Source: a virus
Taxonomy: Duplodnaviria > Caudoviricetes
IMG/VR virus record: IMGVR_UViG_3300038314_001058
Coordinates: 1 to 62,942 of that record
Strand: one strand, 5' to 3'
DNA length: 62,942 nt
Each line of letters opens with the position of its first letter. Position 1 is the stretch's first letter. Position numbers and translations under genes: made by a program. Positions 584 through 61,646 of this stretch are shown here, in pieces. The notes under the pieces are model-generated. The model saw only the letters and a program-made list of their open reading frames with translations, was not told the origin of the DNA and made no database searches.

Positions 584-1417
584 ATGGCGATCGAACTCAC
601 ATACGAGAATCGTTCTGCTCTGCCGGAAGCATTCCAGAACGATGACGTGTTCAACGAAATCTTCACTGAGAACGCCGACGGCACCGTGACGGTGACTGGC
701 GTCACCGGCATGAAGACGCAGAAGGACGTGGATTCCGTGAGCGAGGCTCTCCGCAAGGAGCGCAACGACCACAAGGAAACCCGCGAAAAGCTGCGCCCGT
801 GGGGTGAACTGGATGCGACCGAGACGCTGGCTCAGCTGGATCGCATCAAAGAACTCGAGGCCGCTGCTGGCGGCAAGCTCGACGACGAAGCGATCAACAA
901 GATCGTGGAAGGCCGCATCACCCAGCGTGTCGGCCCGATCGAGCGCAACCTGACCACGGTCACTGAGGAGCGCGATGCAGCGGTCGCAGAGCGTGATGCT
1001 CTGAAGAACCAGATCGTGACCCGTGATCGCAATGACACCATCCGTGAAGAGGCGACCAAGATCAAGGCGCACTCGACCGCGATCCCCGACATCGAGATGG
1101 CTGCGAGCGTCATGCTCGAGCAGAACGAGCAGGGCGAGTGGATCACCAAAGACGGCATCAACGGCATGACCCCCGGCCTGAAGGTCGACGGCTGGCTCCG
1201 GGAGATGCAGAAGATGCGTCCCCACTGGTGGCCCGAGACCGAGGGCAGCGGTGCCGGTGGTGGCGGTCCCTTGGGCAATGGTGCTGCGAACCCGTTCTCG
1301 GCGAAGAACTGGAACCTCACCGAGCAGGGCAAGATCTATCGTGAGAACCCGGTCCTCGCTGACCAGCTTGCGAAGTCTGCTGGCACGAAGGTCGGCGGTC
1401 CCAAGCCGGCGAAGTGA
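584..1417 (+). CDS. Capsid scaffolding protein
   Basis: Coiled-coil acidic protein with Gly-rich linker and NPF...WNLTEQ tail, between portal and MCP; SD GAGG. Confidence 0.75.
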   Translation: MAIELTYENRSALPEAFQNDDVFNEIFTENADGTVTVTGVTGMKTQKDVDSVSEALRKERNDHKETREKLRPWGELDATETLAQLDRIKELEAAAGGKLDDEAINKIVEGRITQRVGPIERNLTTVTEERDAAVAERDALKNQIVTRDRNDTIREEATKIKAHSTAIPDIEMAASVMLEQNEQGEWITKDGINGMTPGLKVDGWLREMQKMRPHWWPETEGSGAGGGGPLGNGAANPFSAKNWNLTEQGKIYRENPVLADQLAKSAGTKVGGPKPAK

Positions 1418-1426
1418 AAATAACAC

Positions 1427-1455
1427 TTGCACCGCATCTCTGAACGGGGTACGGT
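1427..1455 (+). promoter_or_regulatory. Sigma70-like promoter for the MCP, embedded in an inverted repeat
   Basis: TTGCAC-17-TACGGT; ACTTGCACCG...CGGTGCAAGT. Confidence 0.5.
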
Positions 1456-1555
1456 GCAAGTATCCGCTGGTCATGGGACCAGCCCTACCGACCGAGCAGG
1501 GGCTCACTGTCGGATCCTCCCAAACATTATCGGCCCACGCTGAAAGGAGCAAATC

Positions 1556-2614
1556 ATGGCAGCAGGCCCCGCAACTCGTGTGAGCGACGTCGTCGTTCCC
1601 GAGATCTTCACGAGCTACGCCCAACAGCTGACTGAAGAGAAATCCCGCATCATCCAGTCGGGCATGGCAGTCCGTGATTCCCAGATGGACGACCTTCTGG
1701 CTGGTGGTGGTCTCACCTTCAACCTCCCGTCCTTCGACGACCTGGACAACGATCCCGAACGCGTCAGCAACGACAGCTCGGCACCGTTCGACACCGCTGA
1801 CGCTTCCGTCAACGCCGCCGGTTCCGGCACCTCGCCCGAACGTCCGCCGGACCCGAAGAAGATCACCACGCTGACCGAGATCGGCGTCCGTATGAACCGG
1901 AACCAGTCCTGGTCCTCGATGCGTCTCGCCGCCACCCTCGCCGGTGTTGACCCGATGAACGCAATCGCCGACCGCGTCGCTGCCTACTGGGCTCGCCGCC
2001 TCCAGGCCGCTTTCGTGGCAACCTGGAATGGCGTGATCGCTGACAACGTCGCCAACGATGCCGGCGATCTGGTCAACGACATCTCTGGTGCCGGTTACTC
2101 GGCCGGTGTGACGGACTTCTCGGCCGAGGCCTTCATCGACACCGCCCTGACGATGGGTGACTCGATGGAAGACCTGACCGGCGTGATGATGCACTCCGTC
2201 GTCTACGCCCGTGCCCAGAAGAACAACCTGATCGACTTCATCCCGGACGCCCGTGGTGAGATCATGATCCCGACCTTCCTTGGTCGCGAAGTGGTTGTCG
2301 ATGACGGTATGCCCCGGACCGGTTCGGTCTACGACACGTGGCTCTTCGGCGGCGGGAACACCCGCATCGGCGTCGGCGCCCCGGCTGTCCCGACTCAGGT
2401 GCAGGACATCCCCGGCGCTGGCAACGGCGCAGGTCAGGAAGTTCTCTACAACCGTGTCGAGTGGATGATCCATCCCAACGGTCATGCCTACACCGGTGTC
2501 ACGCCCGATGGTGGCCCGGCGAACTCCGACCTGGACGACGCCGCTTCCTGGAACCGGGTCTTCACCGAGCGCAAACAGATCAAGTTCGCGCGGCTGGTCA
2601 CCCGCGAGGCATGA
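1556..2614 (+). CDS. Major capsid protein
   Basis: 352 aa, T-x-x-S-D-V-V-V-P-E-I-F N-terminus typical of phage coat proteins; strong SD AAGGAG; strongly biased codons. Confidence 0.9.
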   Translation: MAAGPATRVSDVVVPEIFTSYAQQLTEEKSRIIQSGMAVRDSQMDDLLAGGGLTFNLPSFDDLDNDPERVSNDSSAPFDTADASVNAAGSGTSPERPPDPKKITTLTEIGVRMNRNQSWSSMRLAATLAGVDPMNAIADRVAAYWARRLQAAFVATWNGVIADNVANDAGDLVNDISGAGYSAGVTDFSAEAFIDTALTMGDSMEDLTGVMMHSVVYARAQKNNLIDFIPDARGEIMIPTFLGREVVVDDGMPRTGSVYDTWLFGGGNTRIGVGAPAVPTQVQDIPGAGNGAGQEVLYNRVEWMIHPNGHAYTGVTPDGGPANSDLDDAASWNRVFTERKQIKFARLVTREA

Positions 2615-2679
2615 TCTGTTGAGGGGGCGGCTTCCGGCAGCGGTCGCCCTCTCACCACCCCAACCGTAGATACGGAGAA

Positions 2680-18100: not shown

Positions 18101-19182
18101 TCACGATTAATGGCAACGAGAACAAGTTTCGCCTCACTGGTACGACCAAGGGCGAAGACTTGGAAATGAATGCCGATAAGATCGATACCACGATCTATGA
18201 CGCTGTCGCACCAGCCTATGAGACCAACTCCACCCAGACTGTGACCACGATGGGTCGCACCACTGCATACTTCATGGACCTGCCTCTCGTGACAGGTGAT
18301 GAGCCTCGCCCTTGGGCTCCTCGTGTGGTTGCCACTCAAGATCCGTTCCCAGAATCTGTGGTCTTCTATGAGGTGCTGGACGGAGGGGACACTCTGGTTG
18401 AGACGCTTCAGATCACAGAACCCGCTGGAACTGGTGTTCTGACGCAGGTCCTCCCTCGGGGACCTCATGAGATCCTTGACGAGGGTAATGTGCTCACCGT
18501 CGAAATGTTCGCCACCAGTGAGGCCCCTGTCAGTCTTTCTGAGACCGAGGTTCGCAATGGGGCAAACGCGATCGCTGTTCAGACGAGCAGCGGTCAGTGG
18601 GAGATCATCAAGTACATCGAAGCCCAAGGGACTGGAGGCAACGTCTACGAGTTGACTCGCCTCTTCCGGGGTCAGCTTGGCACTTGGCCGATCATGGATG
18701 ACGAGATCGCTATCGGTGCCCCTGTGGTGTTCCTGGACGAGGAGACGATCAGTGTTCTGCCGCTGCCCTCCGAGAGAAAGCTGGATGTCACTGAATGGCG
18801 CTATGGGCCGAACACCTACGGCCCTGCGAGCTCTTACTACAAGAACACCGTCCACGAGGGCCTGCCGGTCGCCGAGCTTCCCTATCCCGTGGCCGACGTT
18901 CAGTTCCAGCGCATCACGATGAATGACACTCGGATCACCTGGAAACGCCAGACCAGATATGGCGGTGGTGACTTCGATCTCGCCACGGTTCCTCTTAACG
19001 AGGATGAGGAGCGCTATGAAATTGATTTACTTACGTCCGGTGACGTGCTAATTGATACCGTAGAGGTCACGTCTCCTCAGTACACCTTCGTTGGAGCGCC
19101 TGCCAACTTCAAGGCGCGAATCTATCAAATGTCACTCTCTGTTGGTAGAGGGCGACCAGTGACCGAGCAGAGTCCGTTCTAA
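15175..19182 (+). CDS. Baseplate multidomain protein (megatron), RcGTA g15-like with GTA TIM-barrel
   Basis: EGPRL, AYRGTAYVVFEDL, SYAADWSEY, IDNYLPISDWRDG, WTWDARPYP, GHWLNGR. Confidence 0.92.
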   Translation: MATLLLTSAVAASSLTGFSLFAASLAAGVVGSFIDNRLFAQNFEQEGPRLENMNLSVSTEGTPIKRLFGKARTGGNIIWVTHFREKKNKKKESGGKGGGGSSTTITTYTYFINFAVAFCEGREGVSLGRMWADGELMDTSDVTFRFYDGSETQEPDPLIQSIEGSSEVSAYRGTAYVVFEDLALAKYGNRIPQITAELNVPLLEEGTMETLIESVNLIPSTGEQAYGVTPAFRESGGEVVFSNTNLNSEKSDFVISMEQLRAGLPNTDSLNLVISWFGTDLRLGSCRVLPKVEFYPSLGDSAFGQILIGGLYGVKGNQDEDTWDVSGVTRATAQRVSYDPDGNPYFGGTPTDWSVAECIQHTMDVEDMGVHFYPFILMDIPPNNSLPNIDGVGSSQPAFPWRGRMYTSTPSVDQTSDAADEMDAFFGNVTLSDFTVTVVDGIPLPIYTGLAVDFGYRRMVLHYALLCALAASESQNPQNLKTFYVGTELVGINRVRDENGVYVGTAHLNTLIDEVRALFDSYGLTDTEVSYAADWSEYHSHQDGTGDLNFPLDTIWSNPNCGHIAIDNYLPISDWRDGTDHDDYGTGVDVYGRPKAVTIYDLAYLKGQVEGGEYYDYFYASQADREAQIRTDIFDGTYGKDWVFRTKDISNWWTNLHYERVANVENSTPTGWTPGLKRIRFSEFGCACADKTTNQPNVFVDPKSSESFLPYFSNGNRDDKIQRLYYKAMIEYWRDNSPSLGGVTMLVPNEMCAWTWDARPYPVFPFRQDIWSDGENWRLGHWLNGRVGASSVAKVVKEICSWVGLTEDDIDVSELESRGGIVSGYVVDSQMSPRSAIDPLSNAFMFDSFESQGKIKFKLRELVEFEELSPEDFVAKDQMPSGYEITRRQEVELPATASVSFINEADEYQVGTATGSRQNTISKTTVETRYPIVFTVAEAKVLAETIIQETWAARESITYFLPPSYVYLDPGDGVEITINGNENKFRLTGTTKGEDLEMNADKIDTTIYDAVAPAYETNSTQTVTTMGRTTAYFMDLPLVTGDEPRPWAPRVVATQDPFPESVVFYEVLDGGDTLVETLQITEPAGTGVLTQVLPRGPHEILDEGNVLTVEMFATSEAPVSLSETEVRNGANAIAVQTSSGQWEIIKYIEAQGTGGNVYELTRLFRGQLGTWPIMDDEIAIGAPVVFLDEETISVLPLPSERKLDVTEWRYGPNTYGPASSYYKNTVHEGLPVAELPYPVADVQFQRITMNDTRITWKRQTRYGGGDFDLATVPLNEDEERYEIDLLTSGDVLIDTVEVTSPQYTFVGAPANFKARIYQMSLSVGRGRPVTEQSPF

Positions 19183-22460: not shown

Positions 22461-22463
22461 CGC

Positions 22464-22492
22464 TTGTTCTCGCGCCCCACTTGGGTTATACT
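22464..22492 (+). promoter_or_regulatory. Sigma70-like promoter
   Basis: TTGTTC-17-TATACT. Confidence 0.6.
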
Positions 22493-39202: not shown

Positions 39203-39215
39203 GGGGTTTCACAGT

Positions 39216-42719: not shown

Positions 42720-42734
42720 CATGGAGACTATGGT

Positions 42735-43043
42735 ATGAAATACATAATGTTTGAGGATGACATTGGTGGGAAATATCCTGTCATCTTCCCCGAGAGCTTC
42801 GTACACGCTGACGTCGCACAGACCATGCGTCGGATGAAGTTCGGCAAGCTGAAGCCGGTCAACGCTGGCTTCCTCTGCAACAAGAACGGCAAGACCTATG
42901 GGACCAGCGAGTCCATGGGTCTCGGTTCCAAGCCTTCGGATGGTGACTACATCCTCCTGGGCGAAGCTGTCCGGTTCATGGACGAAGCCCAAGTGGTGTC
43001 GCTCGCTGCACTGTATCGCGAAAAGTATGGAGTAGAGCAATGA
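42735..43043 (+). CDS. Hypothetical protein
   Basis: MKYIMF...PVIFP...H; SD GGAG. Confidence 0.65.
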   Translation: MKYIMFEDDIGGKYPVIFPESFVHADVAQTMRRMKFGKLKPVNAGFLCNKNGKTYGTSESMGLGSKPSDGDYILLGEAVRFMDEAQVVSLAALYREKYGVEQ

Positions 43044-43345
43044 ACAAGACCTTCCGTGAACACGTCACCAGCACGAAGTTCGCACTGACGCTGTCCAAGT
43101 CGATGATCTTCCATCTGCTCTGGTTGTCAGAATCACAACACGTCTGCGGAAGGAGTCATCTGACGCTGGCAGGCCTCACCGATACCACGGTCCCGACCCG
43201 TGGTCGTCTGGCGGCGCGCGGTCTGGTCTACTCACCAGACCCGAACTTCCCCGGCAACTACAAGCTGACCCGCGCCGGTGAGCTCGTCGTCGAGCTGATC
43301 AAGGAAGCTGGTCTTGATGAAGAGTTTAAGGAAGTGATTGAATGA
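43040..43345 (+). CDS. Hypothetical protein, possibly winged-helix
   Basis: L.ARGLV...YKLTRAG..V; ATGA coupling. Confidence 0.55.
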   Translation: MNKTFREHVTSTKFALTLSKSMIFHLLWLSESQHVCGRSHLTLAGLTDTTVPTRGRLAARGLVYSPDPNFPGNYKLTRAGELVVELIKEAGLDEEFKEVIE

Positions 43346-44340
43346 AACCAATGCTCGCCGGGAAGTACGTTCCCGAGAAAGTGGAGAAGCTTCTCCCTGT
43401 CTACGCTCAGCTGAAGTTTGACGGCATTCGTGTCTTCATCCGTGATGGGGTCGCCTACACCCGGTCGTTGAAACCGGTGCGGTCCGAGCAGATTCAGTCC
43501 ATGGTCGCCAACAACAAGTCGCTGGAGGGCTACGACGGAGAGCTCATCTGCGGTGATCCTGCGGCTCACAACTGCTATCAGCGGACCATGTCTTCGGTGA
43601 TGGCGTTCAACCAGCCGGATGATGATGTTCGGTTCTATCTGTTCGACAAGTGGGATGAGCCGAATCCCTTCAAGCTCCGCCTGCTGACGATCATCGACGA
43701 TTCCGAGATGGGTCGCCTCCCTTCTTGGGCTATCCCCGCCGAGACTCTACTGATGCAGACCATCGAGGAGATCGACGACTACATGATGGAGAAGTTCGCC
43801 GAAGGTCACGAGGGCATCATCCTCAGGAACCCGGAGTCCTTCTACAAGTACGGTCGTGGAACGCCGACCCAGTGCGAACTGATCAAGGTCAAGGACGGTC
43901 GTTGGATCGACACCGAGGGCGTGGTCATCGGCAAGCGAGAAGAGATGGAGAACACCAATGACGCAGAAATCAACGCGCTGGGATACACCGAACGAAAAGG
44001 CGGGCAGGCTGGTCTCGTCGGGAAAGGCAGTCTTGGCTCAGTCCAGGTCCGGGGCACCTTTGGCACTGACGATCTTATCCCGGCTCACGTACGAGGAACG
44101 GATTATGAATGCAGTATCGGTTCCGGATTCGATGCAGCCCAACGAGAAGAGCTCTGGCAAGAAGATCTGACAGGTCGGATCGTCAAGTTCAAGTTCTTCA
44201 CCTCCGGCATCAAAGACAGACCACGCTTCCCCATCTTCATCGGCTGGCGTGACCCTGATGACATGGACCCCGGCGCGGCCGAGCAAATGAACCTGTTCGA
44301 CGGAGAAGACTTCTTCTACGATCCAGACGGAGCGTTCTAA
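43342..44340 (+). CDS. ATP-dependent DNA ligase
   Basis: KPMLA, KFDGIR, DGEL, EGIILR, YKYGR, IGSGF, PRFP. Confidence 0.92.
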   Translation: MKPMLAGKYVPEKVEKLLPVYAQLKFDGIRVFIRDGVAYTRSLKPVRSEQIQSMVANNKSLEGYDGELICGDPAAHNCYQRTMSSVMAFNQPDDDVRFYLFDKWDEPNPFKLRLLTIIDDSEMGRLPSWAIPAETLLMQTIEEIDDYMMEKFAEGHEGIILRNPESFYKYGRGTPTQCELIKVKDGRWIDTEGVVIGKREEMENTNDAEINALGYTERKGGQAGLVGKGSLGSVQVRGTFGTDDLIPAHVRGTDYECSIGSGFDAAQREELWQEDLTGRIVKFKFFTSGIKDRPRFPIFIGWRDPDDMDPGAAEQMNLFDGEDFFYDPDGAF

Positions 44341-45164: not shown

Positions 45165-46270
45165 CCAAACACCTCGTATTCGTGACCCCCGGCCTCATCG
45201 ACCTGCGGTCGTTCAACACCTTCGGCTTCAATGCAAAACCGAACACGGAGAACCCAATCGGGTTCTTCGGCACCGGCCTGAAGATCAGCGTGGCGGTCAT
45301 CGCCCGCTTGGGCTGTAAGATGACCGTCCTGATCGACGGTGTGGAGCACGAGTTCTACACCTCCAAGACCGAGTTCCGTGGCAAGGAATTCGATGCAATC
45401 CAGATGCGGAAACGCAAGGGACTGATGTCCCGCTGGAACTACACGAAGATGCCGTATACGACCGAGCTTGGCAAGAACTGGGAGCCGTGGCAGGTCTACC
45501 GCGAACTCGAGTCCAACACGCGGGACGAGGGTGGGCACACAGAGATCGTCGATGACGAGGATCCTCATGGTATGTCGTTCCTCAACGACGACCACAAGGG
45601 CAAGACGGTCATCATCGTCGATGAGCCCTCGATCGTCGCCGTTCATGAGCAGCGAGACAAGATCTTCCTGCCCAAGGAGGAGCTGGAGCTCATCGCCGAG
45701 AGCGGGCGGTTGGAGATCTACGACGCCCCGTCCAGTCACATCTACTATCGCGGGATGCGGGTGCTGGACCTGGACAAAGAGTCCGAGCTCACCTACAACA
45801 TCACGTGTGAGCAGCGGCTGACTGAGGATCGTACCCTCTACTCCTGGAACGCCCTGTGGGAGATCCGCAACTTCTTCACGGTGGTCTGCGAGGATACCGA
45901 TCTCCTTCGGCGGGTTCTCAAGCTGGACGAGTCCAAGTGGGAATCGAACATCGAGTTCGACAACACCTTCACCACGATGGGTGATGTCTTCCGCAAGACC
46001 ACCGACCGCATGGTCGCCGCTGGAGAAGTGATCCTGCCACGCGTCATCACGCTTCGTGAACGCTACGTCCGGGCCGAGTCAACTGAGCCTGAGACGTCAG
46101 TCACGATGAAGGACAGTGAGTGGCAGGCTCTCCGGAAAATTCTGGGAGAATATGACTCAGTTGAGATGTCTGTTCGCCTTGGCTGGGCCGAAGACGATCC
46201 CCGTCTGAAGGTGGTCGACAAGCTGATCGGTCTGATCCCGGACGACGTCGAAGACGAGATCGAGTTCTGA
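45161..46270 (+). CDS. GHKL-like ATPase domain protein (apparently permuted)
   Basis: NPIGFFGTGLK precedes RELESNTRDE. Confidence 0.6.
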   Translation: MTKHLVFVTPGLIDLRSFNTFGFNAKPNTENPIGFFGTGLKISVAVIARLGCKMTVLIDGVEHEFYTSKTEFRGKEFDAIQMRKRKGLMSRWNYTKMPYTTELGKNWEPWQVYRELESNTRDEGGHTEIVDDEDPHGMSFLNDDHKGKTVIIVDEPSIVAVHEQRDKIFLPKEELELIAESGRLEIYDAPSSHIYYRGMRVLDLDKESELTYNITCEQRLTEDRTLYSWNALWEIRNFFTVVCEDTDLLRRVLKLDESKWESNIEFDNTFTTMGDVFRKTTDRMVAAGEVILPRVITLRERYVRAESTEPETSVTMKDSEWQALRKILGEYDSVEMSVRLGWAEDDPRLKVVDKLIGLIPDDVEDEIEF

Positions 46271-49771: not shown

Positions 49772-50262
49772 TGCCCTGCACCTACACCGGGTCGCTCAGC
49801 GGCGACCGCATCATGTCGCTTGAGGGTCAGTTGAAACATGCTCACGCTGAGCTCGACAGGCTGACCCAGATGCTCTGCGCCACCTATCGGCACTTGGAAC
49901 GGCTCCACGGTGCGGATGAGGCCAATGTCTTCGCTCTGATCGCTGGTGAGAACTCGGAGGGCCTTGGGTCGACTGACATCTTCAACTGGTGGCAGGACCA
50001 CAAGAAGGAAGATGCCAAGCGTGACACCGAGAAGGAGGCGATGGATTACCACGCCAAGACGCTGATCGAGCCAAAAGAAGATCGGGACAGCGTCGACTTC
50101 CTCCTCCACAACCTGATCGGCGGTGGTTCCATGATGATCGTCAGCGAGGACGATGTCTTCAAGCTGGTGGCACCGGTCCCGGCCGGCGATCCAGAGGTCC
50201 TCGTGGAAGCCTCCACTTGGGCTGAGTTCCTCATCCTTTGCTCGGAGTACCACGATGTCTGA
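49771..50262 (+). CDS. Hypothetical protein
   Basis: TGATG coupling; MPC...LC...WW..HK..D. Confidence 0.6.
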   Translation: MPCTYTGSLSGDRIMSLEGQLKHAHAELDRLTQMLCATYRHLERLHGADEANVFALIAGENSEGLGSTDIFNWWQDHKKEDAKRDTEKEAMDYHAKTLIEPKEDRDSVDFLLHNLIGGGSMMIVSEDDVFKLVAPVPAGDPEVLVEASTWAEFLILCSEYHDV

Positions 50263-50812
50263 TGGTCCTATCCAGCCCGTTCTATTCTACAATCCGCCGG
50301 GGGTTTATCCTCCGGCTCCTGTCTTCGTCAAGAACAAGTTTGGTGATGACAGGCCGATCCTGGTCATCGGCAATACAAAGCTGGAGACGAAGGTATTCGA
50401 AGAGCATGGCTTCACCAGCATGTCAGCCCAAGAGATGCGGAAGCGGGAGCCGATGAAGTCGCAGTTCAACGTCTGCACGAAGGCAGCTTTCCGGACCCGT
50501 GGTGATGTCGATATCGTAGTCATGGAGCCGACCATGATCTCCAGCATGACGACCAAGATCTCCAAGAACATCCGCCGATGCCCCGGCCAGAAAGTTTGCT
50601 TGTTCACGAACCTTGAACCGAAAAAGGCATTCTGCGTTCTTCACAATCTCGGCGTTGTCAAGGACATCTGGCCTTCGTACGCTGCCTTCTGCTCCCACTT
50701 CGTCTGCATGAATATGCCGAACGGGGTGGTCATACCGAAGAGCGTTCGGGATGGTGAGGTCGAGAACCTCAACCGTCTTCTGAAACCCTATGTGGAGATG
50801 CTCCATGGCTGA
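50255..50812 (+). CDS. Hypothetical protein
   Basis: SD GGAG; overlapping neighbours. Confidence 0.55.
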   Translation: MSDGPIQPVLFYNPPGVYPPAPVFVKNKFGDDRPILVIGNTKLETKVFEEHGFTSMSAQEMRKREPMKSQFNVCTKAAFRTRGDVDIVVMEPTMISSMTTKISKNIRRCPGQKVCLFTNLEPKKAFCVLHNLGVVKDIWPSYAAFCSHFVCMNMPNGVVIPKSVRDGEVENLNRLLKPYVEMLHG

Positions 50813-51377: not shown

Positions 51378-51912
51378 TCTAAAGAAGCGCGAGGTTCGCT
51401 TCGCTCAGCTCGAATGCCACGAGCATATCTTCCGCCCGTCTGGCTACAAGTTCTTCACAACTGAGAAGCACGGCCGGATCGGCCGGTTCCTCGGTCGCCT
51501 CGCTTGGGCTTTCCTGAAGAAGTATCGCTTCCTGGAGCCTTACTACTTCAAGGAGACGATCTACTCCTACGGCGAGAGTGAGCGCTTCGGGGCTCAGGAA
51601 CACTTCACCGATCAGCTCTGGCTCATGTGGCATGGGGTGGTGGAGAAGGGTGGCTCCCCGAGTGACTTCTGCTTCCTGCTCGGCGGCAAGCAGTTCCATG
51701 ATCTTGTCCGGGGTTGGACCTCGCACGATGCAGGGGTTCTTGAGATCTGGAGCGATAGTCTCAAGATGAACGGTCCCGGTTACTCCGGCCGATACTTCGG
51801 ACTGCCGATCTACGTCGTGCCCAGCATGGACGGGGCGATCATCGTGCCCAAGGTGGTCGTGGAGCGACAGGCTCGTCCAGACGAACTAGACTACATCAAA
51901 AGGATCATTTGA
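51370..51912 (+). CDS. Hypothetical protein
   Basis: Overlapping ORF in operon. Confidence 0.55.
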   Translation: MSDLKKREVRFAQLECHEHIFRPSGYKFFTTEKHGRIGRFLGRLAWAFLKKYRFLEPYYFKETIYSYGESERFGAQEHFTDQLWLMWHGVVEKGGSPSDFCFLLGGKQFHDLVRGWTSHDAGVLEIWSDSLKMNGPGYSGRYFGLPIYVVPSMDGAIIVPKVVVERQARPDELDYIKRII

Positions 51913-52534: not shown

Positions 52535-52816
52535 ATGAAACCGAATCTTACTATGCCTCACATTCTTGGTATGATTACCAAGGGTGAGTTCCACCCGATG
52601 AACAGCCAGGACTTTCAGGAGTTTCCCGACTGCTCGACGGTAGCTCTGATCAAAAGGTTCTCTCTGCCGTCGGTGCCCGACTTGGGCTATGAAGCTCAGT
52701 CCGGCGTTATCATCGTGGACGCTGAGAAGGAAGAGCTCATCGTTCACGCATACTTCACCGGTGATACCTCGGACGACAACTGGGAACTCACCAAAGACGG
52801 CTGGAAGGAGCTCTGA
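52535..52816 (+). CDS. Hypothetical protein
   Basis: Downstream of promoter; start uncertain. Confidence 0.55.
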   Translation: MKPNLTMPHILGMITKGEFHPMNSQDFQEFPDCSTVALIKRFSLPSVPDLGYEAQSGVIIVDAEKEELIVHAYFTGDTSDDNWELTKDGWKEL

Positions 52817-52817
52817 T

Positions 52818-53132
52818 ATGAACTATCGCACCCTGGAGTCCAACAAGATTGGCGGTTTCTACATCGACCTGATTCTTTGCAAGAGTCGCTATGAAATCCT
52901 GTTCCACGACTCGTTCGGCGACCCGGATGAGAGCCAGGACCTCGGCATCTGCGGCAAGACCGCTCGCAAGGAGTACGCCAAGTTCTGCGAGACCCAGCGC
53001 TCGCTCCCTGCGAACCGGGCGGTGGACTACGGCCCCGACTGGGAAGCCCAAGCTGCGTACGACGCAGCGCATGGGACTGTCAACGGCCATGATCCCGCCA
53101 TCCTGGAGTATCGCGAGTTGGTCGGCGAGTAG
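52818..53132 (+). CDS. Hypothetical protein
   Basis: SD AAGGAG. Confidence 0.6.
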   Translation: MNYRTLESNKIGGFYIDLILCKSRYEILFHDSFGDPDESQDLGICGKTARKEYAKFCETQRSLPANRAVDYGPDWEAQAAYDAAHGTVNGHDPAILEYRELVGE

Positions 53133-56388: not shown

Positions 56389-56423
56389 AAAAAAAGCCCG
56401 CCATGTCCGAAGACAGGCGGGCT
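56389..56423 (-). terminator. Intrinsic terminator of the inverted early operon (possibly bidirectional)
   Basis: Minus strand GCCCGCCTGTC-TTCG-GACATGGCGGGC-T7. Confidence 0.85.
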
Positions 56424-56445
56424 CATTTTCTTGGGCTTGTGGTTC

Positions 56446-56712
56446 TCAGAAGATGCGCTCTTCTTCCAGATCCCTCGTCATACCCCGAATGTTTCCGGTA
56501 TGAACGATGATGGTCCAGGTCTGGTCGTAGACCGTCTCCCACGGCTTGTCCTCATGCTGGATCCAGCGAGGGGCGACCGTGTTCTTGATCTCAAGGAAAT
56601 CTCCACGGGTCGGTGTGATGACCCGCTTCAGCGATTCGGTCAGAACGACCATCTCAGCTGCGCTATCACAGCAGAAAGGGATCGTGGACAGAGGTGCGAT
56701 ATCGTGTGCCAT
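56446..56712 (-). CDS. Putative early hypothetical protein
   Basis: AAGGAGAGAACTATGGC start. Confidence 0.7.
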   Translation of the reverse strand: MAHDIAPLSTIPFCCDSAAEMVVLTESLKRVITPTRGDFLEIKNTVAPRWIQHEDKPWETVYDQTWTIIVHTGNIRGMTRDLEEERIF

Positions 56713-56722
56713 AGTTCTCTCC

Positions 56723-56944
56723 TTAACGATTGACCCAGTGGCATTCTTCGGTGATCGGGTCACCCTCGTAGCCACTGGCACAGAAGTCGTAGTAGTTGCT
56801 TCCCGGTGATTTGAAGACCGGAGCCGCCTGAAGACCGGGGTCGGCTTCCAGGGTCAGCGTCCAGCCACACAGGTAAATCGGCCGGAACGAATTGGCGCAG
56901 AGCATAGCCTGAGCGACGATCGGCGATACGGGAGGTGTTGCCAT
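56723..56944 (-). CDS. Putative early hypothetical protein
   Basis: AAGGAGAGAACTATGGC start. Confidence 0.7.
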   Translation of the reverse strand: MATPPVSPIVAQAMLCANSFRPIYLCGWTLTLEADPGLQAAPVFKSPGSNYYDFCASGYEGDPITEECHWVNR

Positions 56945-56964
56945 AGTTCTCTCCTTGGTGGTGA

Positions 56965-57010
56965 AGTCCACCGGATGCCAGCCTCCGGAGAGGCTGGTCA
57001 CCGCTAGACT
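56965..57010 (-). promoter_or_regulatory. Intergenic long hairpin H1 (candidate RNase III site)
   Basis: Near-identical to 57437-57482. Confidence 0.65.
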
Positions 57011-57078
57011 TACTTGAAGGCATGGTATATCGTGAGGACGATGAACGCTATGCCTAGGATAGTTAGAAACGAACCCAT
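57010..57078 (-). CDS. 22-aa single-TM peptide MGSFLTILGIAFIVLTIYHAFK
   Basis: Fills the gap between the 57084 stop and hairpin H1. Confidence 0.55.
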   Translation of the reverse strand: MGSFLTILGIAFIVLTIYHAFK

Positions 57079-57083
57079 GCCGA

Positions 57084-57410
57084 TTATCCGGCGTTGTTGA
57101 CCGCCTGACGAATGCGCGCCATGAGCGACAGCTGGATTGCCTTGTCCACGAGTTCCTCGAAGTCGCCGTCCGACAGATACAAGGTGTCCTTGATCTGGTG
57201 GAACGGCTCCAGGTCCAGAAGATTGGCCGAGTCATGCATGGGATCATGCACGACGACGATGCGGCCGGAATCCTGGATGACGCGCAGGCCCAGACGATTG
57301 AGTTCCTCGAAGTCGATGACGACATGGGGAGTGCTCTTCGGCATGGCGTTGTCCTCCAGAACGAGGTCAACGGAGCGGCGGGTCTTGGGAGCGGATTTCG
57401 CGATTGCCAT
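57084..57410 (-). CDS. Putative early hypothetical protein
   Basis: AAGGAAAGTACTATGGC start. Confidence 0.7.
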   Translation of the reverse strand: MAIAKSAPKTRRSVDLVLEDNAMPKSTPHVVIDFEELNRLGLRVIQDSGRIVVVHDPMHDSANLLDLEPFHQIKDTLYLSDGDFEELVDKAIQLSLMARIRQAVNNAG

Positions 57411-57436
57411 AGTACTTTCCTTTCGAATGGTGGGGA

Positions 57437-57482
57437 AGTCCACCGGATGCCAGCCTGGAGACAGGCTGGTCACCGCTAGACT
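57437..57482 (-). promoter_or_regulatory. Intergenic long hairpin H2
   Basis: AGTCTA-G-CGG-TG-A-CCAGCCTG-TCTC-CAGGCTGG-CA-T-CCG-G-TGGACT. Confidence 0.65.
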
Positions 57483-57634
57483 CACTGTTTCTTGAACTCC
57501 TTCCGCTGGCGAGCGACTTCCAGTCGCGTTCCGATGCTTGCCTCGTTGCCCTTGGCAAGCGCCGGAGGACACTTGGTGACCTGACCACCATTGGCGAGGA
57601 ACTCATTGATGAGGTCGATTTCATACTGTGCCAT
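57482..57634 (-). CDS. Small putative early protein (50 aa)
   Basis: AAGGAATATACTATGGC start; I.EFLANGG.VT.CP motif. Confidence 0.7.
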   Translation of the reverse strand: MAQYEIDLINEFLANGGQVTKCPPALAKGNEASIGTRLEVARQRKEFKKQ

Positions 57635-57660
57635 AGTATATTCCTTTCTGGTGTAGTGCA

Positions 57661-57710
57661 TAAGCGCACTGGATGGGAGCCTGTTTCCAGGCTCCGCACC
57701 AGTATGCTCA
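57661..57710 (-). promoter_or_regulatory. Intergenic long hairpin H3
   Basis: Same architecture as H1/H2 with compensatory changes and a GAAA loop. Confidence 0.6.
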
Positions 57711-58205
57711 GGAGGCCTTAGCTTCCTCCTTGGGCTCAGCCTTGGCGGCTTTCGCCTTGAGCCAAGCGTCCTCAGCCGCTTTGAACTCTTCGTCGGTTGC
57801 CTCACGGAGTTCCATGAGGCCGTGGTCCACGTAGAACAGCACGTCCAGGTGATCCAGACCGCCGGTCAGCTTGCAATCCTGAAGGGTCATGCCCTCACGA
57901 TACAGGTGGAACCGGCGGATACGCAGGGCCTTGCCGGGATGCTCGTTGATCTTGGTGATCACGCGGAGCATTTTCCGTTGCGGCTTGGCCTTGGCGACGT
58001 GAGCGGCTGCGCAGTTGCGGATCTTGGCCTCGTTGGCCTGGAATTCCGCGAACTCGATTTCCGCCTTGGTCGGCCCAAGAACTTCCGCCTCGGGAACTTC
58101 CGGGGTTTCCGGAGTTTCCACGGCCGGAGTTTCCACCACAGCGGCGTCCTTAGCAGCTGCATTCTTGCGGGTGGTGTTCTTGCGGGTGGTGTTTGCGTTT
58201 GCCAT
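57708..58205 (-). CDS. First gene of the inverted operon; paralog of 29790-30560
   Basis: ACTATGGC start; YREGMTL...GLDHLDVLFYVDHG. Confidence 0.75.
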   Translation of the reverse strand: MANANTTRKNTTRKNAAAKDAAVVETPAVETPETPEVPEAEVLGPTKAEIEFAEFQANEAKIRNCAAAHVAKAKPQRKMLRVITKINEHPGKALRIRRFHLYREGMTLQDCKLTGGLDHLDVLFYVDHGLMELREATDEEFKAAEDAWLKAKAAKAEPKEEAKAS

Positions 58206-58218
58206 AGTTTTAACTTTC

Positions 58219-58610
58219 CCATAAAGCGCAACCGGGATTGGTTGCCCAAGACCGTGCCCAAGGAGGGCACGGCTAAGGGCAAACAACCCGACCCAATAGG
58301 GACAGGTTACTTGCGTAGGAAAGGATTGGCGTTTTGCTGGTGTTTGCTACCCCTGCCGCCCCAGAACTTAGCGTGGCCCGGTAGTGGTTACAGCGGCCCT
58401 TGCGAGGCGCACTACTGGCGGACGCTGCCCAACGGCAGAGTGTACGCTGGAAACCAGAGCGGGTTGCAGGAGCGGACCAAGTGCCACCGTGCCCTGCATT
58501 GCCGCCCACACTTGCGCTTGGGCGAACCCGACCTACCAGCCGTGGCCCCTATATGCCCGACCCCCGTAGGGGTGGGAAGGGCTAGGCACCGGAGCAAGCC
58601 CCCGTGCCAT
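58219..58610 (-). ncRNA. Candidate ~400-nt structured leader RNA
   Basis: Lies between promoter 58617-58645 and the first gene; several hairpins including a UACG loop; no convincing ORF. Confidence 0.45.
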
Positions 58611-58616
58611 GCAGTT

Positions 58617-58645
58617 ACCTTACATTTGCACTAGCGACCTCGCAA
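58617..58645 (-). promoter_or_regulatory. Promoter of the inverted operon
   Basis: Minus strand TTGCGA-17-TAAGGT. Confidence 0.6.
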
Positions 58646-58772
58646 CAACAAAATGTCCAATGGGGCAAATTAATTGCGAGCGGACGTAGCCTCCCCTCAG
58701 CCGTCCGCTCAGCGGAGCGGTCCTCGGCGGACCCTGCCCTAGTGGGACAGCCATAGGTGCGACCCTGCCGGA

Positions 58773-58929
58773 CGCCACAGGGGCAGGGGCAGGGCAGGGC
58801 AGGGCAGGGCAAGGCCACAGGGGCACCACAGGGCGCGCCACAGGGGCAGGGCAGGGCAAGGGCAGGGCAAGCCCCTGCCACCGGCCACAAGGGCACCACA
58901 GGCCACGCCACAGGGCTGTGGCGCGCTGT
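58773..58929. repeat. Low-complexity GGGCA and (G)CCACAGGG repeat array
   Basis: Tandem AGGGC units and at least five CCACAGGG copies. Confidence 0.85.
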
Positions 58930-59241
58930 CCACCGGCCACCCCACCCCACCGACGGGTCAGGGGCAGTCGGGCGGGGTGCAGGCCCCGTGCCCATCCATC
59001 TCGGCCAGACATACGGGATCACATGCAAGATAGCATATGACCAAGAGCAGACGACAAAGGACCGAGGACCGAGGACAAAGGACAGACGACCTCCTCCAGA
59101 GAACGAAGGATAGGAGAACCACTGACGAAGATCCTCCCACCCACAAAATAATAAAATAGAACAGAGACCTGGATGCAAAAGACAACGTAGAGTCAATGGA
59201 GTCAGTAGAGGCGGCGCACAATCACGCGTGAAACAGCGACC

Positions 59242-59317: not shown

Positions 59318-59569
59318 ATGCACGAATTAGAGCTATCTGCGGCACGAGCCGCGTGGAAGGCCGCTGGTGCGACTGTGAAGAAGGCTCCGGAGACCATGGA
59401 CGATGGTGTCCGCTATTTGCAGTTGTATGAGGAAGAGCCCAAGACGAGGGCGGGGTGGAATCAGTTCAGGAAGGCTGCGAAGGTACTTGCTGACGAGCTC
59501 CCGGACGAGCATCATCCTTTTGATGTCTACATCCTCTCCCTTGGGCTTTGTTGGGAGATGATCAAATGA
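59318..59569 (+). CDS. Hypothetical protein
   Basis: ORF downstream of promoter; start uncertain. Confidence 0.5.
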   Translation: MHELELSAARAAWKAAGATVKKAPETMDDGVRYLQLYEEEPKTRAGWNQFRKAAKVLADELPDEHHPFDVYILSLGLCWEMIK

Positions 59570-59814
59570 GGTGCGGGAATGCCGGGGAAGACGCAACAAA
59601 TATCGTGAGGTTCGACATTTCGGAGTATGATCGTTTGGATCCGGCGCTCCGAAAGATGCTTCGGATGGCTCCGGTCCCGATTGATCCGGTGTCGTTCTAT
59701 AGAGCGTACCTGGAGAATGGTGCGAATATGTATGTTTTCCAAGGTGAATTTGATAGATGGCTGAAGCGAGAATATCCAGACTACGATCCCACTGATCTGG
59801 TAAATCGCGAATGA
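59566..59814 (+). CDS. Hypothetical protein
   Basis: ATGA coupling. Confidence 0.5.
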   Translation: MRCGNAGEDATNIVRFDISEYDRLDPALRKMLRMAPVPIDPVSFYRAYLENGANMYVFQGEFDRWLKREYPDYDPTDLVNRE

Positions 59815-59883
59815 GGTAAGTGAAAATTTGCGCTTGCCAGACAAGCCCAAGTGAGGCAACATCGGGGTGAAAGGACCACTCCG

Positions 59884-60123
59884 ATGAATGACCACGATCA
59901 AGAGCACAAAACAGGCCCACAACTCGTCAAGTTTCCCTCAACAGAAGACGGTATCCGCTCAGTCGAAGAGACGCTGGAGAAGGCGAAGAAACGCGGACTG
60001 ACCGAGGTTGTCGTCCTGGGCTTCGATGAAGACGATGAGCATGTCGTCCTCGCGTCAACGATGCTGAACAAGGACATCCTCTGGCATGGTGAGCTCCTTC
60101 GCAAGTTCGCGCTTGGGGACTGA
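59884..60123 (+). CDS. Hypothetical protein
   Basis: SD AAGGA; L.EVVVLG.D motif. Confidence 0.65.
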   Translation: MNDHDQEHKTGPQLVKFPSTEDGIRSVEETLEKAKKRGLTEVVVLGFDEDDEHVVLASTMLNKDILWHGELLRKFALGD

Positions 60124-60125
60124 GC

Positions 60126-61646
60126 ATGAACGACTTCCCTGACAACGTCATCTGGAAACCGCAGGCTGGATCGCAGGAGGCTTTTCTTGCGTCCACACCT
60201 ATCTTCGAGGTTCTGTTCCAAGGGACACGGGGCGGTGGTAAGACTGACTGTCTTCTCATGTCCTATGGTCAGTTCGTTGGACGAGGATTCGGAGCAGGGT
60301 GGAAAGGCATTCTGTTTCGGCAGACCTATAAGCAGCTGACCGACGTCATTACCAAGACCAAGAAGTGGTTTCCACAGATCTGGCCTCAGGCGAGGTTCAA
60401 CGGTTCGGAGCATAAGTGGGTCTGGCCGACTGGTGAAGAACTGCTTCTGCGACAGTTCAAGAAGGACGATGACTACTGGAACTATCACGGTCACGAGTAT
60501 CCCTGGATCGGATGGGAAGAGCTCTGCAACTGGCCGACTGATGCTGGATACAAGCGAATGTTCTCGTGCTGCCGGAGCTCGACGCCCGGTATGCCTCGTA
60601 TGGTCCGTGCAACGACGAACCCGTATGGTCCCGGCCACAACTGGGTGAAGATGCGGTTCCAGCCGCAAAATATGAACATGAAGGTCCGCCGTGGCCTGAT
60701 TGACGAGCAGGGTCTGGAGGAGCCGCCTCGCCTCTCCATCTTCAGCCGACTTGACGAGAACAAGATCCTGCTGAAAGAGGACCCGGACTACATCAACAAG
60801 ATCGCTGCGTCGGCGAGGAACGAGGCTGAGCGAAAGGCTTGGCTGGAGGGTTCCTGGGACGTTGTCGCTGGCGGTATGTTCGACGACGTGTGGGATCCCA
60901 AGTACAATCTCATCAAGCCATTCGAGATTCCGTGGAACTGGCGCATCGATCGGAGCTTCGACTGGGGTTCGTCCAGACCATTCTCTGTCGGCTGGTGGGC
61001 AAGGTCCAACGGTGAAGACGTCAAGCTGGCGAGCGGTCGTTGGGCTTCGACTGTGAAGGGTGATCTTTTCCGTATCAATGAATGGTACGGGTGGACCGGG
61101 AAGCCCAACGAGGGCGTCCAGATGCTGGCGACTGACATCGCTCGTGGTATCGTGGAGCGTGAGATCCAGATGGGTCTTCGGGTTCAAGGCGACGGTGGGT
61201 ATTGTCGTGTGAAGCCTGGTGTAGCCGACAGCCAGATCTTCGCTGCGGAGAACGGCAACTGCATCGCTGTCGACTTCAAGTCAAAGGTTCGTCTCGACGA
61301 TGGCATTCAGTACAAGGGCATTCAGTGGCTTGAAGCAGACAAGCGCCCCGGTTCACGCGCTACCGGCTGGGTGCAGATGCGCCAGATGCTCAAGAATGCT
61401 CACCCGACCGTCTTGGGCGAGAGGGACGATGGGTCTCTCATCCTTGGGCCTCGGGAGAAGCCCGGTCTGTTCATTTTCAGCAACTGCGACAATTGGGCGA
61501 GGACTGTTCCTGTTCTGCCCAGAGACGAAGACAACCCGGATGACGTCAACACTGATACCGAGGATCACATTGCTGACGAGACGCGATACAAGGTCCGATC
61601 GGTCGGTGTGTCTGTCAGTGGCGGTACAGTCAGCGGCCAACACTAG
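60126..61646 (+). CDS. terL: Terminase large subunit
   Basis: WKPQAGSQ, GTRGGGKTD, WIGWEEL, RATTNPYGPGHNWVK, SFDWGSSRPFS, EDHIADETRY. Confidence 0.93.
   Translation: MNDFPDNVIWKPQAGSQEAFLASTPIFEVLFQGTRGGGKTDCLLMSYGQFVGRGFGAGWKGILFRQTYKQLTDVITKTKKWFPQIWPQARFNGSEHKWVWPTGEELLLRQFKKDDDYWNYHGHEYPWIGWEELCNWPTDAGYKRMFSCCRSSTPGMPRMVRATTNPYGPGHNWVKMRFQPQNMNMKVRRGLIDEQGLEEPPRLSIFSRLDENKILLKEDPDYINKIAASARNEAERKAWLEGSWDVVAGGMFDDVWDPKYNLIKPFEIPWNWRIDRSFDWGSSRPFSVGWWARSNGEDVKLASGRWASTVKGDLFRINEWYGWTGKPNEGVQMLATDIARGIVEREIQMGLRVQGDGGYCRVKPGVADSQIFAAENGNCIAVDFKSKVRLDDGIQYKGIQWLEADKRPGSRATGWVQMRQMLKNAHPTVLGERDDGSLILGPREKPGLFIFSNCDNWARTVPVLPRDEDNPDDVNTDTEDHIADETRYKVRSVGVSVSGGTVSGQH

Follow-up and report, generated by a model that had tools for sequence, protein, structure and literature searches.

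What reads a seven-base word that recurs throughout a phage genome? The question is raised by the virus record IMGVR_UViG_3300038314_001058 of IMG/VR (Duplodnaviria; Caudoviricetes). Its assembly is the entire stretch of 62,942 bases analyzed here (the window; GC content 57.3%), and it is the complete genome (62.9 kb) of a marine siphophage that belongs to the YuA/M6/PaMx11 type. A reading made from the sequence alone (the sequence-only reading) had picked out the heptamer CTTGGGC and its complement GCCCAAG as over-represented across the genome, and had proposed that a RepB'-like primase-helicase encoded in the window primes DNA synthesis at this word. We confirmed that the enrichment is real, exact and a property of the DNA, about five-fold in size (four- to eight-fold depending on the null model). 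The word may be the core of a distributed replication signal that is read by a protein of the phage's own replication block. That the heptamers are initiation sites for the RepB'-like primase, and that the protein encoded at 39894-42314 is their reader, is the explanation that we favor, although our confidence in it falls a little short of even.

The heptamer is enriched at the level of the DNA

Between positions 1270 and 61449 the window holds 75 copies of the heptamer on both strands, with the consensus A-GCCCAAG-RRRR. On the + strand they read as 36 GCCCAAG (F sites) and 39 CTTGGGC (R sites). The sequence-only reading had counted 36 and 38, which is right for the F sites and one too few for the R sites, and all 23 of the positions that it listed carry the word in question. 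Dinucleotide shuffles (n = 100) gave 8.74 ± 3.10 copies, with 18 as the largest count. Markov models of orders 0, 1, 2 and 3 predicted 11.1, 9.1, 12.8 and 13.5 copies, and the heptamer was the top 7-mer at each order. We dropped a ranking at maximal order, which was dominated by stop-codon words, and used lower-order and codon-aware nulls. When codon order was permuted within genes (1000 shuffles), 15.5 ± 3.0 copies were expected with a maximum of 26; when synonymous codons were permuted within genes (1000 shuffles), the expectation was 19.2 ± 3.2 and the maximum 32. The enrichment thus stays under the codon-preserving null that had been proposed as its check, and under this null too the heptamer is the top 7-mer (z = 16.8). 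It is also exact: the word itself stands at 5.6 times expectation, and none of its 21 single-base variants exceeds 2.5 times.

Most copies (68 out of 75) lie inside called genes, 37 in antisense and 31 in sense orientation, and the other 7 are intergenic or at gene edges. Genes in the window and in unannotated relatives were called with an in-house codon-usage caller. Compared with the synonymous null, antisense copies number 17 vs 2.1 in frame 0 and 15 vs 1.4 in frame 2, and sense copies number 14 vs 2.2 in frame 0, 15 vs 3.5 in frame 2 and 2 vs 0.24 in frame 1. Five of the six orientation-by-frame classes are therefore enriched, by 4- to 11-fold. Because the enrichment is found in both orientations and in five of six classes, it is a signal in the DNA and not a property of the encoded proteins.

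One may still suspect a by-product without function, arising from codon-pair or peptide bias or from the decay of CCWGG sites (CCTGGGC to CTTGGGC through deamination of 5-methylcytosine). Proteins do contribute to the count, since the synonymous null (19) exceeds the dinucleotide null (9). However, the spread over five of the six classes argues against a coding origin, and intergenic DNA has its proportionate share of copies. The codons themselves give a mixed picture. The sequence-only reading had held that the motif often forces codons that this genome otherwise avoids, which is right in part: TTG makes up 7.1% of Leu codons, and 15 of its 111 occurrences are within the motif. The corresponding figures for the other motif codons are 18% for CTT (18 of 281 in the motif), 16.7% of Gly codons for GGG (18 of 263) and 22.9% of Gln codons for CAA (14 of 157).

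Two simple roles were considered and rejected. A Shine-Dalgarno-like role for GCCCAAGGAGG does not fit, as the sites checked lie inside genes and half of them are antisense. A target of restriction-modification or of a methyltransferase does not fit either, as the word is enriched rather than avoided; no methyltransferase family was found among the 40 window proteins (a subset of the open reading frames) that were scanned against Pfam or PHROGs. Other words are depleted in the window relative to the synonymous null. These include the CCWGG-related words CCTGGC (4 vs 42), CCAGGG (14 vs 47), CCCAGG (18 vs 53) and ACCAGG (9 vs 39), as well as CAGCTC (10 vs 52) and GCACGC (2 vs 30), a pattern that suggests restriction-site avoidance.

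Relatives carry the word in variant forms

The accessible part of PMC11946847 describes two types of primase N-terminal part in this phage family, referred to here as type 1, the kind encoded in the window, and type 2. A search with the whole primase returned 16 IMG/VR loci, and all 16 have an excess of GCCCAAG (for instance 19 vs 2.7 and 11 vs 1.4). We made a second search with an alignment of the primase N-terminal domain, kept the best 80 loci of 286 matches and analyzed the 36 that are at least 12 kb long. The Markov-3 ratio of observed to expected GCCCARG is 1.8 to 4.2 in 35 of these 36 type-1 loci and 1.0 in the remaining one (L092), with the reservation that many loci are fragments, that some are near-identical and that Markov expectations are rough for loci of 12 to 21 kb. 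Among seven named type-1 phages, six (YuA, PaMx11, MW2, PhiJL001, Pam3 and RHph_I65) have ratios of 1.8 to 2.5. In the seventh, Sonora, the ratio is 1.4, but GCCCAGA reaches 35 vs 10.4.

The preferred form of the word differs between phages. CCTGGGC/GCCCAGG is the top 7-mer in Simon (132 vs 31.9), PaMx11 (120 vs 40.4) and RaNi (116 vs 42.3), and YuA and MW2 have a moderate excess of both GCCCAGG and GCCCAAG. Further forms are AGCCCAAG in PhiJL001 (15 vs 1.5), GCCCAAA in RHph_I65 (22 vs 4.2) and GCCCAGG in Pam3 (51 vs 19.2). The excesses in named relatives shrink but survive synonymous shuffles, in both orientations and in several frames; Simon, for instance, has 12 vs 0.6 copies in antisense frame 0 and 6 vs 0.2 in sense frame 2. 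In Pam3 (L021) the strongest words, ahead of GCCCARG, are GCGATCC/CGATCC and CCCGAG/CTCGGGG. They may reflect host composition, and we take the first pair to resemble part of the cyanobacterial HIP1 palindrome.

CCWGG density is at least 3.5 per kb in the 10 loci in which AGG dominates and no more than 2.6 in those in which AAG does; both forms occur in L055 (3.7 per kb). The choice between AGG and AAG follows CCWGG density, and thus the clade-wide signal is (A)GCCCARG, with a sixth base that is set by a second constraint.

Phages enriched in this core infect Pseudomonas, Bordetella, Stenotrophomonas, Rhizobium, a marine alphaproteobacterium and Pseudanabaena. The breadth of this list bears on whether the phage mimics a signal of its host, such as the Chi site of host RecBCD or AddAB, an uptake sequence or the site of another host factor. 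Chi is enriched in some phages, and the window comes from marine metagenomes only, which leaves some room for a host signal. However, the same GCCCARG core would have to serve in six host genera from different classes. In addition, PA_LZ02 grows on P. aeruginosa PAO1, a host that it shares with several type-1 Pseudomonas phages, and lacks the enrichment (30 vs 26.8 and 4 vs 16.7). We consider a mimicked host signal hardly credible, and a host Chi site is largely excluded.

Sites are conserved at short range and replaced at long range

Relatives at 71% nucleotide identity to the window retain 1 to 3 of 5 to 13 aligned sites, a share at the level of the background for any 7-mer (0.10 to 0.14). 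Between relatives at 82 to 93% identity nearly all are kept: 7 of 7 from L013 to L018 (background 0.27), 12 of 12 from L017 to L004 (0.63), 6 of 7 from L014 to L016 (0.41) and 10 of 11 in another pair (0.61), these pairs being partly non-independent. At short evolutionary range the sites are under purifying selection. Since they are kept at short range and replaced at long range while their density is held, they behave as a distributed, position-independent signal.

The same comparison bears on the mutational version of the by-product explanation. The window's word differs from the GCCCAGG of its relatives by the C-to-T change expected from deamination of CCTGG, and CCWGG is depleted here. Nevertheless, the sites are not relics of an ancestral CCTGGGC, because their positions are unshared with relatives at 71% identity. 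Their conservation above background in close relatives and a flank that does not depend on orientation (see below) also argue against it. A true peptide artefact looks different, as AGGCCAAG shows: in the type-2 phages, where it is over-represented, its copies are almost all in sense orientation, 3-periodic and clustered. A coding or mutational by-product is largely refuted, and we give it next to no credence.

The sites have a purine flank and form divergent pairs

The signal extends beyond the heptamer. In the window, 36 of the 75 sites have A at position -1 and 59 have a purine at +7. When 136 sites of 13 IMG/VR relatives are taken together, purines occupy positions +7 to +10 in 87, 94, 79 and 93% of cases and T falls to 1-9%, and this bias is equal in sense and antisense copies. 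The flank is a compositional demand for purines with no fixed bases, and A-GCCCAAG plus a run of purines makes up the fuller motif. In all lineages the A that follows GCCC is invariant, and the next two purines vary (AG, GG, GA or AA).

Density is even along the genome, with mean gaps of 1748 bp for GCCCAAG and 1614 bp for CTTGGGC, in line with the genome-wide spread of roughly one copy per 1.7 kb per strand that had been described. Regularity is mild. The coefficient of variation of the gaps is 0.82 for all sites, compared with 0.98 for random placement (P = 0.05); it is 0.66 for CTTGGGC on the + strand (P = 0.003) and 0.87 for GCCCAAG on the + strand (P = 0.28). The two strands are used about equally (39 vs 36), and the cumulative skew is flat with no switch point.

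Orientations alternate beyond chance (49 runs vs 38.4 ± 4.3). Adjacent sites in the order R-then-F (divergent pairs) no more than 400 bp apart number 15 vs 6.8 expected (P = 0.0004, label permutation in the window), whereas adjacent F-then-R (convergent) pairs number 6 vs 6.8. The divergent pairs lie at 18311-18628 (R at 18311 and F at 18622, 311 bp apart), 26709-26865 (150 bp apart), 27581-27854 (267 bp, within the intergenic gap 27412-27872), 29348-29391 (37 bp), 31295-31393 (92 bp), 32121-32154 (27 bp), 35898-35993 (89 bp), 39106-39368 (256 bp, just 5' of the nuclease, helix-turn-helix and primase genes), 42709-42993 (278 bp), 45307-45676 (363 bp), 50216-50432 (210 bp), 51503-51852 (343 bp), 52681-53052 (365 bp), 57729-58079 (344 bp) and 59540-59851 (305 bp). 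Relatives show the same excess, at 200 and at 400 bp: 37 vs 19.9 in 21 IMG/VR loci of the AAG type, 148 vs 120.3 in 13 genomes or loci of the AGG type and 33 vs 17.8 in four other phages. A bias of position within genes as the source of the R-to-F pairing is unsupported, as F sites lie on average at relative position 0.49 and R sites at 0.59 (P = 0.23).

The counterpart of close divergent pairs is long intervals from F to R. In three groups of relatives such intervals cover 0.379, 0.309 and 0.332 of the genome, compared with 0.258, 0.246 and 0.250 in label shuffles; in the window itself the share is 0.291 vs 0.252 and nonsignificant (P = 0.23). This layout would suit a Chi-like polar signal for a phage helicase-nuclease that stops degradation or starts recombination at broken replicating DNA, since breaks would be flanked by correctly oriented sites. 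Candidate enzymes are the Dda/RecD-like helicase (26176-27411, + strand) together with the PD-(D/E)xK-like protein (39201-39632), both of which are conserved in the clade. The word also has the expected character, being short, non-palindromic and position-independent, with turnover at a conserved density. Set against this are the nonsignificant share in the window and the genome L092/G004, which has both proteins yet no enrichment. We know of no phage-encoded enzyme that recognizes Chi, nor of a Chi function for a purine flank. Overall we judge a Chi-like role to be quite unlikely.

The word follows the conserved replication block

To what genes, then, is the word linked? PA_LZ02, Xoo-sp2 and Mallos, which are relatives within the family on the basis of taxonomy or of structural genes, have type-2 primases. 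They match the window primase over its helicase half only, and they are without the window-type DNA polymerase (PolA), the nuclease-like protein and the hypermodification genes. None of the three has an excess of GCCCARG (ratios of 0.8 to 1.4). Conversely, the myophages Pam3 and RHph_I65, whose virion genes differ, have only the replication and nucleotide block in common with the window, and they do have the excess.

We asked whether AGGCCAAG, at 31 vs 4.3 in PA_LZ02 and 21 vs 3.5 in Xoo-sp2, is a sister word of the type-2 phages, and rejected it. In PA_LZ02, Xoo-sp2 and Mallos (L028, L025 and L029) it occurs almost only in sense orientation, with a period of 3, and clustered in few genes (in PA_LZ02, for example, at 10.6-12.4 kb and 42.09-42.23 kb). 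It is therefore a repeated Glu-Ala-Lys coding pattern and a false DNA motif.

The hypermodification genes of the window (30563-34565, + strand, identified with PHROG and Pfam) encode the helical domain of a 5-hydroxymethyldeoxyuridine (5-hmdU) DNA kinase (HMUDK; 30563-31507), a radical SAM/SPASM protein (31435-32526) and a dUMP-hydroxymethylase-like homologue of thymidylate synthase (33513-34565). With these genes it is a thymidine-hypermodifying phage of the YuA/M6 kind. The heptamer could therefore be imagined as the preferred context of the kinase, or of an enzyme that converts 5-hydroxymethyluracil (hmU) to T, with protective bases placed evenly along the genome. According to the accessible parts of PMC5889632 and PMC8989533, conversion of hmU proceeds 'in a sequence-specific fashion', and its motifs are not known. 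The word does offer T's, in CTTGGGC and in the pyrimidine flank of the complementary strand.

Three observations argue against a modification context. First, the complete genome G001/L088 (69,649 bases, direct terminal repeats, CheckV completeness 100%) has no HMUDK match and only a weak match, in an open reading frame of 277 aa, to the thymidylate synthase homologue; it may carry unmodified thymidine, and it provides a natural control where hypermodification is in question. Its coding regions nevertheless hold 31 copies of GCCCAGG vs 11.2 ± 2.6 under the synonymous null (maximum 17 of 200 shuffles), a 2.8-fold enrichment, so the hypermodification genes are not needed for the motif. Second, phiW-14, in which T is hypermodified and replication is T4-like, shows no excess (14 vs 18.2 and 25 vs 18.5, a ratio near 1). 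Third, the modified share of T's in such phages can reach one half according to the accessible part of PMC8989533, which implies a context far shorter than 7 bases. We regard this explanation as very improbable.

G001 retains the SNF2 helicase, the gp34-like protein, the Dda-like helicase, PolA, the nuclease-like protein and the primase. The tandem helix-turn-helix protein encoded next to the primase (39605-39961) was rejected as a necessary reader: it was not found in nine enriched relatives (L056, L085, L086, L088, L091, L096, L099, Pam3 and RHph_I65). The word therefore follows the conserved replication block, and not the host, the virion module, the helix-turn-helix protein or the hypermodification genes. 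The comparison of related phages by primase type, which the sequence-only reading had proposed, thus links the enrichment to the replication block with this primase and not to the host.

Co-inherited members of the block are the SNF2 helicase (22732-24231, + strand, Pfam), the Pam3 gp34-like ATPase, the Dda-like helicase, PolA (35727-37823, + strand, found by library matches in the window and by tblastn in relatives) and the PD-(D/E)xK-like nuclease. The site could thus belong to another DNA-binding protein of the early or replication block that acts on double-stranded DNA, such as a helicase loader, a chromatin-like organizer or a coordinator of replication and transcription. Enrichment that is symmetric on both strands would fit such a protein, as would the length of the extended consensus, since 11 to 12 bp is a typical footprint of a protein. 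Conserved, co-inherited candidates are at hand as well: the Pam3 gp33-like and gp34-like proteins, the SNF2 helicase and the products of 29790-30560 and 32529-33512, the last two of which have no Pfam match. However, the obvious candidate, the tandem helix-turn-helix protein, is missing from nine enriched relatives. Divergent pairs are preferred to convergent ones while their distances vary from 27 to 400 bp, which speaks for a directional process rather than mere binding, and the flank calls for purines but for no particular bases. A site of another block protein is fairly unlikely in our view.

The primase-helicase and its neighbors

The candidate reader is a protein of 806 aa encoded on the + strand at 39894-42314 (the true start is possibly 39945). 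It matches PHROG 1829, 'DNA primase' (E = 3e-81), and residues 84-218 match Pfam RepB_primase (PF16793) at 27.1 bits, above the curated cut-off of 24.3. The helicase part matches Pfam DUF5906 at 76.1 bits (residues 506-614) and a VapE-like family at 26.2 bits, and residues 485-700 match PDB 6k9c/6k9e (E = 3.1e-7), which we take to be NrS-1 entries.

Residues 1-440 were modeled with AlphaFold on the basis of 26 sequences, from the window and from IMG/VR loci (mean pLDDT 86). The model predicts a mixed alpha/beta domain, a low-confidence disordered linker (219-227) and a helical domain (244-344). With this model Foldseek first returned the archaeo-eukaryotic primase (AEP) domain of the cyanophage S-2L PrimPol (6zp9_A; E = 3.9e-9, TM(target) 0.74). 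Next came full-length RepB' (3h20; E = 2e-7 over 355 columns, but with a root-mean-square deviation of 12.8), and the RepB' catalytic domain bound to initiator DNA (3h25_A) was also matched (E = 8.7e-6, TM(target) 0.62). Residues H86, D88, D90, S125, G126, G128, D165, H168 and D171 are invariant in the 26 sequences and presumably catalytic. On these sequence matches and the predicted fold, the protein is best described as a RepB'-like AEP primase fused to a superfamily 3 (SF3) helicase of the NrS-1/D5-like kind; the Pfam, PHROG, PDB and fold matches bear out the identity that the sequence-only reading had assigned to it. Its identity is 48 to 51% to the primases of Simon, of the Pseudomonas phages YuA, M6, PaMx11 and Ab18 and of the Bordetella phage MW2, and 74 to 79% to those of uncultured IMG/VR contigs. 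In public records the primase is often labelled 'integrase'.

On the 5' side of the primase in the window, and directly 5' of it in all type-1 relatives, lies the gene for the small PD-(D/E)xK-like protein (39201-39632, + strand), a homologue of YuA gp24 and Pam3 gp60 (blastp E = 1e-14 to 1e-20). We presume that it is a nuclease, from its conserved ...PDVN...ELK pattern. By tblastn it is present in 36 of 36 IMG/VR loci and in the seven named type-1 phages, and it was not found in the three type-2 phages or in Ssp-JY40. The tandem helix-turn-helix protein (39605-39961, + strand) lies between the two; it is homologous to YuA gp25 and PaMx11 gp58, is internally duplicated and matches Pfam HTH_3 and HTH_31 in two stretches. 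Public labels of the homologues YuA gp24/gp25, PaMx11 gp57/gp58 and Pam3 gp60 include 'DNA helicase', 'recombination protein U' and 'repressor'.

Proposed initiation sites for the primase

How might the primase use the word? On a single-stranded template 5'-YYYY-CTT-GGGC(T)-3' it would bind the GGGC(T) part, and the primer would begin with A opposite the adjacent T and then copy the pyrimidine run. With this start and this copied run, the primer would read 5'-A-A-G-R-R-R-R. The 3' flank, purine-rich in composition, is as would be expected of a purine-initiated primer that adjoins the word. With a site about every 1.7 kb on each of the two strands, discontinuous synthesis would be primed for forks traveling in either direction, and the divergent pairs (CTTGGGC...GCCCAAG within 400 bp) would have the geometry of two outward leading-strand starts. 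By analogy, these pairs resemble the inverted ssiA/ssiB pair that RepB' uses in RSF1010. We infer the primase as the reader, the choice of template strand and the position of the primer start. Such a model would account for the link to the block, the invariant A, the purine run, a site spacing near 1.7 kb per strand, the occurrence on both strands and the divergent pairs, and on these grounds we hold it tentatively, as somewhat less than evenly probable.

A distant relative lends weak support to the primase link. The temperate Synechococcus phage Ssp-JY40 shares with the window only a distant primase N-terminal domain (0 of 9 other window proteins were matched), and it has 30 copies of GCCCAAG vs 12.0 ± 3.2 under the synonymous null (maximum 22 of 300 shuffles), a 2.5-fold excess.

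Several observations weigh against initiation by the primase. The excess in Ssp-JY40 is mostly in sense orientation (frame 2, 16 vs 4.7), without A at -1 and without a purine run, and codon-pair effects could explain it. The genome L092/G004 (60,896 bases) contains the block except the kinase (primase, nuclease, helix-turn-helix protein, PolA, SNF2 and Dda-like helicases), but shows no GCCCARG enrichment despite its type-1 primase (8 vs 7.9) and no other strong word. Presence and absence do not single out the primase within the co-inherited block: the SNF2 helicase, the Pam3 gp34-like protein and the Dda-like helicase are found in G001/L088, as are PolA and the nuclease-like protein in L088, and because all of them stay in this genome any of them could be the reader. 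A bias toward the lagging-strand template with a switch at a single origin is absent (39 vs 36 sites, flat skew), a bias that is expected only for replication from a single origin. Strand-symmetric enrichment would also be given by a protein that binds double-stranded DNA, and the layout of short R-to-F and long F-to-R intervals is also favored by a Chi-like protective signal. No AT-rich unwinding elements lie between the paired sites (GC content of 0.555 vs 0.573 for the genome), and the 400-bp limit for pairs was picked after the data of the window had been seen, the relatives then being tested at this limit and at 200 bp. Finally, we know of no citable primase that requires a run of four purines after its start.

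Two further observations concern L092/G004. Its top word, AGCGCGG, is a coding effect (sense frame 1, 16 vs 15.0), and its gp34-like gene has an in-frame TAA.

Priming at the heptamer, as the sequence-only reading had proposed it, is thus favored by the enrichment, the RepB'-like primase, the link to the block and the purine flank, and disfavored by the missing lagging-strand bias and by L092. Among the alternatives it had named, Chi-like sites of a phage helicase-nuclease and sites of a DNA-organizing protein stay candidates, whereas Chi sites of the host are largely excluded. Something outside all of the explanations considered here would be unlikely but no great surprise.

If primase initiation is correct, a bolder picture may be drawn, which we offer as speculation and think rather unlikely as a whole. 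In this clade (YuA/M6/PaMx11-like siphophages and Pam3-like myophages) each genome would contain dozens of priming units of the RepB' type. Such a unit would be a divergent pair of AGCCCARG-purine sites from which two leading strands could set out in opposite, outward directions. Replication would start from many primase-defined places, not one origin, with single sites serving the lagging strand. The demands of the primase would shape codon and even amino-acid choice, and the AGG and AAG forms would drift with CCWGG avoidance.

Comparison with known systems

According to the accessible part of PMC8567376, RepB' is site-specific, uses two inverted sites on opposite strands in a leading-strand mode, and starts primers base-specifically with dATP opposite T. 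The window primase is like RepB' of RSF1010 in matching Pfam RepB_primase and in folding, in the model, like 3h20 and 3h25, and the low-confidence linker and the helical domain that the model places after the catalytic domain may correspond to those of RepB'; its putative sites likewise favor divergent inverted pairs and have an invariant A after GCCC. The differences are equally clear. The ssiA and ssiB sites are 40-nt hairpins, one per strand, inside oriV, whereas the word in the window has 7 to 8 nt and a purine flank, lacks a hairpin and recurs 75 times along the genome. Unlike RepB', the window primase carries an SF3-type helicase in the same polypeptide, and PolA and a ligase are encoded by the phage itself.

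The primase-polymerase of NrS-1, with the sites TTTGGTTA and GTG, is likewise an AEP primase of a phage, with a homologous helicase domain attached. In the accessible part of PMC8718748, which also mentions pRN1, its recognition word is long, and primers begin at the first base on the 5' side of the site, with a slack of a few bases. The sequence-only reading had taken TTTGGTTA to be enriched in the NrS-1 genome; that part of the article says only that GTG sites far outnumber TTTGGTTA there, and does not bear the claim out. Unlike the window phage, which has a separate PolA, NrS-1 uses this enzyme as the replicative polymerase itself, and the AEP domain of the window is nearer to RepB' and to the S-2L PrimPol.

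Other primases use shorter words. The sites of T7 gp4 and pRN1 ORF904 are GTC-based pentamers and GTG, with a partly cryptic word adjoining a purine start. The likeness is that of a short template word next to a purine start. However, their words have 3 to 5 nt and, to our knowledge, are not strikingly enriched, whereas the window's word has 7 to 8 nt and is enriched and paired. Chi, DNA uptake sequences and FtsK-orienting polar sequences (KOPS) offer a different kind of parallel, as short, non-palindromic, over-represented words that act at any position, with turnover at a kept density and a polar arrangement. They are read by the host, specific to host lineages and usually strand-skewed, whereas the window's word follows a phage block through several host classes and is strand-symmetric.

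In literature full text we found no relevant report of the heptamer, of its AGG form in phages or of over-represented recognition motifs of phage primases. In the accessible text of the Mesyanzhinovviridae review (PMC11946847) the words 'motif' and 'overrepresented' do not occur. Sequence-specific primases are known, but we found no report of a word of 7 to 8 bases that is enriched about five-fold on both strands, with a flank and pairing, and conserved across a clade.

If the primase does read the word, these phages, several of which are candidates for Pseudomonas phage therapy, would have a directly testable replication model. Their case would show a replication enzyme constraining coding sequence genome-wide, and the word would provide a sequence signature by which the replication module can be recognized in metagenomes. 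If the primase is not the reader, the signal still marks an unknown, conserved and polar DNA transaction in these phages.

Other features of the genome

The + strand carries nearly all genes, and gene order is the same as in YuA and Sonora. An open reading frame of 529 codons spans the ends of the record (61927-62942 joined to 1-571), directly 3' of the large terminase gene (60126-61646). The assembly is therefore circular or permuted, and by position this frame is probably the portal gene. Protein library matches identify a Dda-like helicase, a ribonucleotide reductase, PolA and an ATP-dependent DNA ligase (43342-44340, + strand), alongside the thymidine-hypermodification enzymes described above. 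The public sequencing runs that contain this phage are marine metagenomes, and a query of genome contigs with the window primase found no relative.

A cluster of minus-strand genes at 56400-58300 breaks the otherwise plus-strand genome. Five of its genes have the common start context aaggagaga-ACT-ATGGCA, which explains an enriched 9-mer, ACTATGGCA. At 58781-58870 there is a tandem pentanucleotide repeat of GGGCA/GGGGCA units, overlain by a minus-strand open reading frame of the caller (58615-59196). The enrichment of the KOPS-like word GGGCAGGG arises from this single repeat and was rejected as a signal.

The intergenic region 22142-22519 (378 bp, 49% GC) separates the lysis and tail genes from the early genes. 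Its probable role is in early regulation, and it may be an origin. It holds an AT-rich core (ttattatataataaaaac), repeats of tacttagacc-like words and two copies of the heptamer on the same strand, 22 bp apart (22267 and 22289).

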